DNA from: Escherichia coli
GTDB lineage: Bacteria; Pseudomonadota; Gammaproteobacteria; Enterobacterales; Enterobacteriaceae
DNA: 64,000 nt
Direction: 5' to 3' (one strand)
Assembly (NCBI RefSeq): GCF_013315695.1
Contig: NZ_CP054353.1
Within the stretch, counting starts at the first letter, position 1, and every line of letters begins with the position of its first letter. Shown one piece after another: positions 6,001-9,000 of the stretch. Position numbers: made by a program.

Positions 6001-9000
6001 ACTGCGTCAGCAACGGCGGTGATCTGCGGAACACCTACGCCAGTCACGATACGCGTCGTACAGATAGAGCCAGGGCCGATACCGACTTTAACCGCGCTGC
6101 AACCAGCTTCTGCCAGAGCGCGTGCCCCCGCAGCTGTTGCCACGTTGCCGCCGATGATTTGCAGATCCGGATATTTAGCACGAGTTTCACGGATACGCTG
6201 CAGAACGCCTTCAGAGTGACCGTGAGAGGAGTCGATCAGCAGAACGTCAACGCCTGCGGCAACCAGCGCGTCGACACGCTCTTCGTTACCAGCGCCAGCG
6301 CCAACCGCTGCACCAACACGCAGACGGCCTTGCTCGTCTTTACAGGCGTTCGGTTTACGTTCCGCTTTCTGGAAGTCTTTCACGGTGATCATGCCGATCA
6401 GGTGGAATTCGTCATCAACCACCAGCGCCTTTTCAACGCGTTTTTCGTGCATTTTTGCCAGCACCACTTCACGGGCTTCGCCTTCACGCACGGTTACCAG
6501 ACGCTCTTTCGGCGTCATGTAAACGCTAACCGGTTGATTCAGATCGGTCACAAAACGCACGTCACGACCGGTGATGATGCCGACCAGTTCGTTTTCTTCG
6601 GTAACCACCGGGTAGCCCGCAAAGCCGTTACGCTCGGTCAGTTCTTTCACTTCACGCAGGGTGGTTGTCGGCAGCACGGTCTGCGGATCAGTTACCACGC
6701 CAGATTCGTGTTTTTTCACACGGCGAACTTCTTCTGCCTGGCGTTCAATGGACATGTTTTTGTGGATAAAGCCGATACCGCCTTCCTGAGCCAGAGCAAT
6801 AGCCAGGCGCGCTTCCGTTACGGTATCCATTGCTGCGGAAAGCATAGGGATATTCAGACGAATAGTTTTCGTCAGCTGGGTGCTGAGGTCAGCAGTATTC
6901 GGCAGAACGGTAGAATGAGCAGGAACGAGGAGAACGTCGTCAAACGTCAGAGCTTCTTTAGCGATACGTAGCATGGGCAATATCTCGACCAGAGTGGTTA
7001 ATAAATATTGCCGCGGCATTATACAGAGCGTAACCGATTGCATCTACCCCTTTTTGCAAAAAATGCTTGCTATCCCCGGAGGGCGGGTTACTATCGACTG
7101 AATAACCTGCTGATTTAGAATTTGATCTCGCTCACATGTTACCTTCTCAATCCCCTGCAATTTTTACCGTTAGTCGCCTGAATCAAACGGTTCGTCTGCT
7201 GCTTGAGCATGAGATGGGACAGGTGTGGATCAGCGGCGAAATCTCTAATTTCACACAACCAGCTTCCGGTCACTGGTATTTTACGCTCAAAGACGACACC
7301 GCCCAGGTGCGCTGTGCGATGTTCCGCAACAGCAACCGTCGGGTGACCTTTCGCCCGCAGCACGGACAACAAGTTTTAGTGCGCGCCAATATTACACTCT
7401 ATGAACCGCGCGGCGATTATCAGATTATCGTCGAGAGTATGCAGCCTGCCGGTGAAGGGTTGCTGCAACAAAAATACGAACAGCTTAAAGCGAAATTGCA
7501 GGCTGAAGGTTTGTTCGATCAGCAGTTAAAGAAACCGCTTCCCTCCCCCGCGCACTGCGTCGGTGTGATCACCTCAAAAACCGGTGCTGCGCTACATGAT
7601 ATTTTGCATGTGTTAAAACGTCGCGATCCGTCTTTGCCGGTGATCATCTACCCCACCGCCGTTCAGGGTGATGACGCGCCAGGGCAAATTGTTCGCGCCA
7701 TTGAACTGGCGAATCAGCGTAACGAATGTGATGTGCTGATCGTCGGGCGCGGCGGCGGTTCGCTGGAAGATTTGTGGAGTTTTAACGACGAACGTGTAGC
7801 GCGGGCGATCTTTGCCAGTCGCATTCCGGTGGTCAGCGCCGTCGGGCATGAGACGGATGTGACGATTGCCGACTTTGTTGCTGATCTGCGTGCGCCAACG
7901 CCGTCTGCCGCCGCTGAAGTAGTGAGCCGCAATCAGCAAGAATTACTGCGCCAGGTGCAATCGGCCCGTCAACGACTGGAGATGGCGATGGATTATTATC
8001 TCGCCAACCGCACGCGTCGTTTTACGCAGATCCATCATCGCTTGCAGCAGCAGCATCCACAGCTCCGGCTGGCACGCCAACAAACCATGCTTGAACGCCT
8101 GCAAAAACGGATGAGCTTTGCGCTGGAAAATCAGCTTAAGCGTGCCGGGCAACAGCAGCAGCGATTAACACAGCGGCTGAATCAGCAAAATCCACAGCCG
8201 AAGATTCATCGCGCGCAAACGCGCATTCAGCAACTGGAATATCGTTTAGCAGAAACCCTGCGCGCACAGCTTAGCGCCACGCGTGAACGTTTCGGTAATG
8301 CAGTAACGCATCTCGAAGCGGTGAGTCCGCTGTCCACACTCGCTCGCGGTTATAGCGTTACCAGCGCCGCTGATGGCGCGGTGTTAAAACAGGTTAAGCA
8401 GGTGAAAGTGGGTGAGACACTGACCACTCGCCTGGGCGATGGCGTAGTGATCAGTGAAGTGAGTGCGGTGACGAAAAGCCGCAAGCCACGTAAAAAAGCC
8501 TGATAGCGCGTTGCGTATCAGGCTTTCGGAACCTCATATTGACAAGGTGGATAAGGTTACTGGAAGCAGGTTGCAAACCCCGGCGTTTTCGCAGGCTGAA
8601 TGCCACAGTTGAGACTGCCAGAGCCTTCATCAACACCACAATAGAACGACCCAGCCTTATCAGTAGATAAATACGGGAAGCTTATCGAGGACGGCCATCC
8701 CAATGTGCTAAAGCCGGAGTGTAATGTTTGTAATTCGGCACTGCTCGGCACGTTATTCATACTGCCACACTGCTGCGCGACATCCCATTTAGAGGAATCC
8801 ATAACATGCGCCAGTGCCCAGGTTTCATTATTTACATCAGGCGTTGCTGCTGCGGTAGCGCCTGACGGCAACTCCGATTTTAATAGCGGGCGATGCAGCG
8901 TCTTGCCACTTACCGTGGCGGTATCCGCCATATGACCCCAGAAATACGCCGTGGCGACATTCGGGCTGGTCGGCACGGTGAAAATCGTGTCCAGCGTCGC

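Follow-up and report, generated by a model that had tools for sequence, protein, structure and literature searches.

By what signal does transcription of a giant adhesin gene end when the next gene faces it on the opposite strand? The question is raised by a 64,000-nt stretch of the Escherichia coli chromosome (NZ_CP054353.1, GCF_013315695.1), hereafter the window, in which a minus-strand open reading frame (ORF) for a RatA-like adhesin converges on xseA, the gene for the large subunit of exodeoxyribonuclease VII. Between the two lies a hairpin at 8495-8526 that takes in the xseA stop codon. We consider it probable that this hairpin is the Rho-independent terminator of the minus-strand transcript that carries the adhesin gene, the last gene of the ila island, a reading supported by its canonical minus-strand geometry (stop codon, 30 nt, 11-bp stem, U6). 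Most likely it is an ordinary, well-formed predicted intrinsic terminator that would not surprise a specialist.

Anatomy and folding of the hairpin

The elements on which the argument turns are the following.

8492-8497, minus strand: U6 tract of the candidate terminator; on the plus strand, xseA codons Lys453-Lys454 (AAA AAA)
8495-8526, minus strand: hairpin, with arms 8495-8505 and 8516-8526, GC core 8498-8505 and 8516-8523, apical region 8506-8515
8501-8503, plus strand: xseA stop codon TGA, in the 5' arm of the hairpin (sequence, ORF list)
8527-8556, minus strand: 30-nt spacer from the adhesin stop to the hairpin (sequence)
8557-8559, minus strand: adhesin stop codon TAA (sequence, ORF list)
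7136-8503, plus strand: xseA, exodeoxyribonuclease VII large subunit, 455 amino acids, stop TGA at 8501-8503 (ORF list; Pfam Exonuc_VII_L, 1.3e-114; RefSeq annotation of an identical junction)
8557-16632, minus strand: RatA-like giant adhesin gene, 2691 amino acids, with nine InvE_AD and nine BIg21 domains (ORF list, Pfam, RefSeq annotation)

On the plus strand, 8492-8526 reads AAAAAA-GCCTGATA-GCGCGTTGCG-TATCAGGC-TTT, the three inner segments occupying 8498-8505, 8506-8515 and 8516-8523 and the closing TTT 8524-8526. The result is a perfect 11-bp inverted repeat (8495-8505 with 8516-8526; a stem of 11-12 bp when folded), in which the GC core is lengthened by three A-U pairs out to 8495/8526. 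The last xseA codons, AAA AAA GCC, make up the A6 run and begin the stem. An initial annotation of this DNA had described a good minus-strand hairpin with a T-run overlapping the final codons and stop of xseA, and the sequence, the folding and a scan of T-runs all bear this out; its stem of 8498-8522 was right as to the hairpin but one base short at the right end, where the core extends to 8523 and the A-U pairs to 8526. In minus-strand RNA, U6 (8497-8492) follows directly 3' of the hairpin, and its first three U can pair with the AAA at the base of the stem. In plus-strand RNA the hairpin is followed by UUUCGG, that is, by U3 only.

A 38-nt element around the hairpin folds at -18.6 kcal/mol on the plus strand (z-score, z, of -5.0) and at -18.5 kcal/mol on the minus strand (z -6.5), values that 0/200 shuffles equalled; in a 51-nt context the energies are -18.6 (plus) and -19.0 (minus) kcal/mol, with z about -3. 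By this check of both strands, an energy of about -18.5 kcal/mol together with minus-strand U6 is sufficient for an intrinsic terminator. For comparison within the 64 kb, the 40 nt preceding each of the 197 runs of at least five T, on both strands, were folded with ViennaRNA. The hairpin at the 8497 minus-strand run ranks fifth by energy among all 197 and first among hairpins that directly abut their run, and is on a par with the convergent-pair terminators at 3811 and 37923/37940.

A consensus terminator scan did not call the hairpin, because the 10 nt between its perfect arms exceeds the scan's loop limit of 8; within 6500-11000 the same scan called nothing else on the minus strand. The earlier proposal that the giant adhesin ORF has no other good terminator-like hairpin downstream thus holds. 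Rfam returned only sub-threshold matches at the hairpin (E above 1); these are minus-strand matches that stop at the U-run, all far below threshold, and their strand and end point would fit the terminator ends of small RNA models.

A stable stem-loop, an adjoining U-tract and a position 30 nt past a co-oriented stop codon are all present on the minus strand, and we propose the following course of events. RNA polymerase would go past the adhesin stop (8559-8557) and copy the 30-nt spacer, whereupon the stem-loop 8526-8495 would form and the transcript would be released within the U6 tract (8497-8492). Island transcription would end inside the last three xseA codons, with no antisense run through xseA. 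The plus-strand hairpin may also form in xseA mRNA; termination there is expected to be poor, because UUU alone follows and the xseA stop lies within the stem, where a terminating ribosome, judged by the size of its footprint, would cover the 5' arm.

Strand asymmetry among alleles

The commonest allele of the hairpin is that of the sequence type 131 (ST131) type, with 568 matches in the 90-95% identity band. It differs from the window at just two hairpin positions, G8498A and G8508C, and the first of these is informative as to strand, since it leaves a G.U pair in minus-strand RNA and an A.C mismatch in plus-strand RNA, while lengthening the minus-strand U-run to 7. The ST131-type hairpin folds at -16.0 kcal/mol on the minus strand (z -5.0) and at -10.2 kcal/mol on the plus strand (z -2.1), a cost of 2.5 as against 8.4 kcal/mol. 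Because G8498A keeps pairing on the minus strand and breaks it on the plus strand, it is the minus-strand RNA that the alleles appear to preserve. Comparison of alleles shows 2 variable positions in the 32-nt hairpin; the 30-nt spacer beside it has about 7.

These observations bear on whether the hairpin is instead a truly bidirectional terminator, serving xseA and adhesin transcripts with similar efficiency, either intrinsically or through the collision of RNA polymerases that has been described for convergent pairs of E. coli genes. The stem is symmetric, with A6 on its 5' side and a T-run on its 3' side, and in the window allele the two strands fold with equal energies; between xseA and the adhesin gene the consensus scan offers no alternative terminator for xseA; the window holds two clear terminators of this kind (3799-3844 and 37913-37950); and such terminators are described, in a preprint passage citing Ju et al. 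2019, as prevalent between convergent E. coli genes (bioRxiv 10.1101/2022.10.23.513370). However, three asymmetries point to the minus strand: U6 as against U3, the plus-strand tail being UUUCGG only, so that a U-tract is present on one strand rather than both; a stop codon 30 nt away as against one inside the stem, with the ribosome over the 5' arm; and the allele effect, by which the commonest allele is weakened chiefly in the xseA direction. We regard similar efficiency in both directions as unlikely.

The island and its xseA-side edge

The gene order across the locus is guaA, guaB, xseA (plus), the 2691-aa ORF (minus), a 332-aa ORF, a 734-aa ORF, yfgJ (minus), der and bamB. The remaining genes of this interval are:

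16742-17740, minus strand: sinI-family gene of the same island, 332 amino acids (ORF list, RefSeq annotation)
17790-19994, minus strand: sinH, an intimin-like inverse autotransporter, 734 amino acids (Pfam IAT_beta, 5.8e-106; RefSeq annotation, with the annotated start at window position 19964)
20174-20389, minus strand: yfgJ, double zinc ribbon, a core gene that bounds the island on its far side and whose stop, in island-free genomes, overlaps that of xseA (Pfam, genome comparison)

Pfam and the RefSeq annotation of near-identical genomes thus place sinH, sinI and a ratA-like adhesin between xseA and yfgJ, the arrangement that marks islands of the ila/CS54 type. In the CS54 island of Salmonella, shdA and ratB adjoin xseA in addition. 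The window island is the published ila locus (sinH-sinI-ratA), being identical to it in genes, order and insertion point; that locus corresponds to the genomic region 'GR 17 xseA..yfgJ' and is regarded as a derivative of Salmonella CS54 (PMC12928451; PMC12525524). Neither paper mentions the 3' junction, the hairpin or an alternative haplotype with a repetitive extragenic palindromic (REP) element. At 46-57%, the GC content does not set the island apart. Beyond sinH, the intergenic stretch 19995-20173 has a very high AT content and, on the minus strand, strong structure (z -4.8); presumably it combines the island promoter and leader with the yfgJ 3' end.

Where does core DNA give way to island DNA? 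Alignment to island-free xseA extends through CGTAAAAAAG, to 8498, and then breaks off, and on the far side homology restarts at the yfgJ stop, 20174; the structural insertion therefore spans about 8499-20173, with its edge 2 nt before the xseA stop. The initial annotation had set the right junction of the island essentially at the xseA stop, which agrees with this, with the caveat that divergence is elevated for some 200 bp into xseA. Over the last two 100-bp bins of xseA, from about 8300, identity with island-free alleles is down to 73% and 63%; this 3' segment is shared by island-bearing E. coli at 86-87% and by island-free strains at 73-74%. Because divergence is high from about 8300 and the segment is common to island-bearing strains, the island haplotype itself reaches some 200 bp into xseA.

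The last xseA codons, CGT AAA AAA GCC TGA (RKKA*), CGTAAAAAAGCCTGA, are identical in the xseA of Klebsiella oxytoca, which has no ratA island; the RKKA tail recurs in xseA of other genera, and island-free xseA also carries an A-run (AAAAAG or AAAAAA). Since the K. oxytoca tail is identical and RKKA is found in other genera, the A6 run and GCC are native xseA sequence, core rather than island DNA, and the TGA is possibly native as well. The hairpin is thus a composite, in which the coding end of xseA supplies the U-tract and the outer half of the 5' arm, and the loop and the other arm are specific to the haplotype.

A position at the structural junction of core and island might be thought to mark the hairpin as a recombination or attachment site of island insertion. 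We found no direct or inverted repeats of at least 9 nt common to the two island ends, and the ORF list, Pfam and RefSeq gave just ratA, sinI and sinH between xseA and yfgJ, with no integrase or transposase among these ORFs, no tRNA scan having been made. On these grounds the idea of a site-specifically integrated mobile island with an att site was dropped. The flanks speak in the same sense. Compared with K-12-like E. coli over 5700-8500 and 20174-20500, guaB and xseA bins are 88-100% identical up to the last 200 bp of xseA (63-73%), yfgJ 50-79%, and der and bamB 94-100%; this mosaic of diverged xseA and yfgJ haplotypes is as expected if the island spread through recombination between homologous flanks and not by site-specific insertion. 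Other island haplotypes, moreover, have different sequences at the same junction, and an attachment function is scarcely credible.

Distribution in E. coli

The junction was surveyed across 5426 complete E. coli genomes. The island-free junction, a 4-bp overlap (TTAA) of the oppositely oriented xseA and yfgJ coding sequences, is found in 3676/5426 genomes and is seen in K-12-like and O157-like genomes (L001 2804-2807; L003 3304-3307). It is devoid of terminator-like structure and folds no better than its shuffles (z -0.6 and -1.0), and no such hairpin occurs in these 3676 island-free junctions. The hairpin segment is present in 746/5426 genomes, and in all 40 listed matches, as in all those inspected, it occupies the position between xseA and the adhesin gene; it is specific to island-bearing genomes.

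A further 928/5426 genomes have the island with a different junction, in which a canonical multi-copy REP stands in the hairpin's place and the adhesin allele is deeply diverged (about 66% nucleotide identity). In E. coli strain 9 (L002 3295-3345), which has the same junction as Nissle 1917, the xseA frame enters the REP and stops at the TAG of its GTAG. The hairpin is thus confined to one of two island haplotypes, the other having the REP. Together the census shows that the C-terminus and stop codon of xseA depend on the neighbouring DNA, with three states in E. coli.

The 91-nt context of the hairpin is single-copy in each genome, except for one fragment copy. This additional copy, in E. coli E19 (L087 2852-4737), comprises 183 nt of the xseA 3' end, the hairpin and 207 nt of the adhesin 3' end; it adjoins an ISEcp1 transposase near uhpA and was presumably brought there by ISEcp1.

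The same junction in other lineages

A scan of species-representative genomes, seeded with xseA, gave 80 Enterobacterales loci, with no Salmonella among them. In many Enterobacteriaceae xseA and yfgJ lie close together (12-80 nt apart or overlapping), and the cargo of the gap differs between genera. The ratA/sinI/sinH island adjoins xseA in Pseudocitrobacter, Escherichia sp., E. albertii, Citrobacter sp. FP75, Superficieibacter and E. coli E69. From xseA stop to ratA stop the distance is 26-89 nt, and the spacer of every island-bearing lineage examined contains a hairpin, although the sequences are unrelated. A hairpin between these convergent genes is thus general, and the minus-strand intrinsic terminator is one solution among several.

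Citrobacter sp. FP75 (L013 11345-11395) offers a parallel to the window: the hairpin GCGACAGC...GCTGTCGC has the xseA stop within it and U5 after it on the ratA strand. At -29.9 kcal/mol (z -3.1) and unrelated in sequence to the window hairpin, it seems to be the same design arrived at independently. In Escherichia sp. the spacer hairpin has U4 on the xseA strand. Canonical REPs occupy the spacer in strain 9 (Nissle type), E69 and Pseudocitrobacter, with one or two copies in the last two, and the xseA stop is the TAG inside the REP's GTAG in strain 9, E69 and a Pseudocitrobacter metagenome-assembled genome.

This recurrence also bears on a further explanation, that the window hairpin is a chance palindrome or a neutral leftover without function. 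With two known alleles only, its conservation could reflect recent common descent. Against this, z ranges from -5 to -6.5 with no shuffle its equal, the hairpin lies exactly where expected relative to the stop codon and the U-run, it varies less than the neighbouring spacer, and some hairpin is found in the spacer of each of these lineages. We hold a chance origin to be very improbable.

The gap between xseA and yfgJ is a cargo hot spot in multiple genera. In K. oxytoca (L034 2767-4136) it holds no adhesin island; it carries a gene for a protealysin-type M4 metallopeptidase with its emfourin partner. The loci of Enterobacter, Lelliottia and Kosakonia have a similar xseA-yfgJ spacing, and this spacing alone suggests that their gaps contain the same cargo.

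Relation to REP elements

Three REP elements are present elsewhere in the window:

40256-40284: Z-type REP with the arms of the hairpin
47504-47536: Z-type REP with the arms of the hairpin
59515-59544: Y-type REP

The arms of the hairpin conform to the consensus of the imperfect REP palindrome, GCCKGAT...ATCMGGC. Its own pattern, GCCTGAT...ATCAGGC, occurs three times in the window where 0.01 would be expected, and the other two occurrences are REPs, one of them with a CTAC tail. The tetranucleotide GTAG/CTAC is absent on either side of the hairpin, the flanks being AAAAAA and TTTCGG. Family membership was judged from such pattern counts and from the in-window REPs, BLAST being blind to family similarity over 26 nt.

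Could the hairpin, then, be a degenerate Z-type REP that resembles a terminator only through the accident of landing beside the Lys-Lys codons of xseA? Its chief role, if it has one, would then lie in shielding mRNA 3' ends from exonucleases or in attenuating transcription with Rho. Such effects have been reported for REPs, as have a role as terminator-stabilisers and a position between convergent genes (bioRxiv 10.64898/2026.03.23.713779). The recurrence of the arms favours this origin, as does the layout, which matches that of REP_40256 (a 7-8 bp stem, a bulge, a GCG/CGC mini-stem and a 3-nt loop). It is also at exactly the hairpin's position that the alternative haplotype has its canonical multi-copy REP, GTAG + ACCGGATAAG...GCATCCGGC, and the Pseudocitrobacter and E69 junctions, too, have REPs. 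However, the missing GTAG/CTAC, the unrepeated 91-nt context, the derivation of half the 5' arm from xseA coding sequence common to K. oxytoca, and a perfect stem that abuts U6, unlike that of typical REPs, all tell against it. Moreover, an origin as a REP and function as a terminator are not mutually exclusive. REP ancestry of the hairpin is plausible but unproven and compatible with termination; that REP-like effects account for the element in place of termination is, in our judgement, improbable, about as much so as equal termination in both directions.

The case for a minus-strand terminator

The anatomy, folding, distribution and allele asymmetry of the hairpin are shown here, and termination is inferred from them. 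Several points weigh against reading it as the adhesin terminator. Termination at the site is purely predicted. The stem core is merely 50% GC, and the arms are 10 nt apart. The known alleles are separated by two substitutions only, which gives no real test of covariation. The arms GCCTGAT/ATCAGGC are identical to those of the Z-type REPs at 40256 and 47504, so that REP biology, and not selection for termination, may be why the palindrome exists. Finally, the REP of the 928 E. coli genomes has no adjacent U-tract at the junction, and the hairpin of E. albertii-like loci is followed by a U-run in the xseA direction or in neither direction; because these two groups differ from the window, a minus-strand intrinsic terminator is no universal requirement of the island. 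We nonetheless favour predicted termination of the adhesin transcript at this hairpin over the alternatives discussed above.

If so, the reading has practical uses. It gives a predicted end of the adhesin transcript, useful for annotation and for SinH/RatA constructs, SinH being under study as a vaccine antigen (PMC12525524), while the xseA-side boundary of the ila island is now fixed within a few bases of the xseA stop. The hairpin is also a tidy example of a predicted terminator whose U-tract and half a stem code for the opposing gene. A much bolder proposal is that the three xseA 3' ends (yfgJ overlap, REP-type, and hairpin-type in strong or weakened form) set the level of antisense transcription into xseA or the stability of xseA mRNA, so that the adhesin island tunes Exonuclease VII and DNA-repair phenotypes, for example in ST131, the terminator being an insulator under selection, made out of the coding end of xseA, that arose independently in Citrobacter sp. 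FP75. We mention this as a long shot, less likely than either the bidirectional or the REP alternative.

Structured elements elsewhere in the window

More interesting than the hairpin between xseA and the adhesin gene is the 109-nt sinI-ratA intergenic region (16633-16741, minus strand), which folds into two tandem hairpins at -49.5 kcal/mol (z -6.5):

16707-16734, minus strand: first hairpin, HP1
16663-16705, minus strand: second hairpin, HP2

Together they lie within 16663-16734 and are kept in seven island-bearing lineages of five genera. Across these, 95% of cells are paired and 9/32 pairs have compensatory double changes, values reached by 0/500 shuffles, and several G.U pairs are valid on the minus strand only. 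An Rfam search with these hairpins gave no family match. HP1 is followed by UUUU, and HP2 is a helix of 17-21 bp that precedes the ratA ribosome-binding site by about 25 nt. Because UUUU follows HP1 and sinH is reported to be co-transcribed with sinI (PMC12525524), HP1 could end the sinH-sinI transcript, as a terminator or attenuator; HP2 as a processing or regulatory site is speculation.

The bidirectional terminators at 3799-3844, between convergent yfgI and guaA, and at 37913-37950 look like textbook cases, each with an A-tract, a GC stem and a T-tract.

Comparison with known systems

Like the intrinsic terminators of E. coli, the hairpin is a stem-loop followed by a U-tract a few tens of nucleotides past a stop codon, with an energy and stem length within the usual range. 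Unlike them, its U-tract and part of its stem are coding sequence of a convergent gene, and its apical region, with 10 nt between perfect arms, is larger than that of textbook intrinsic terminators, beside which it stands as a predicted example. With bidirectional terminators, as the preprint passage cited above presents those of Ju et al. 2019 (bioRxiv 10.1101/2022.10.23.513370), it has in common a single hairpin between convergent genes with A-tract and T-run flanks; it departs from them in having U6 on one strand and U3 on the other, one stop codon inside the stem, and a commonest allele destabilised on the xseA strand only. Z-type REPs have the same 7-nt arms and a similar layout of stem, bulge and mini-stem, and a true copy takes the hairpin's position in the other island haplotype. 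The window hairpin differs from them in that it overlaps a coding end, has a perfect stem with an adjacent U-tract and an unrepeated context, and carries no GTAG/CTAC.

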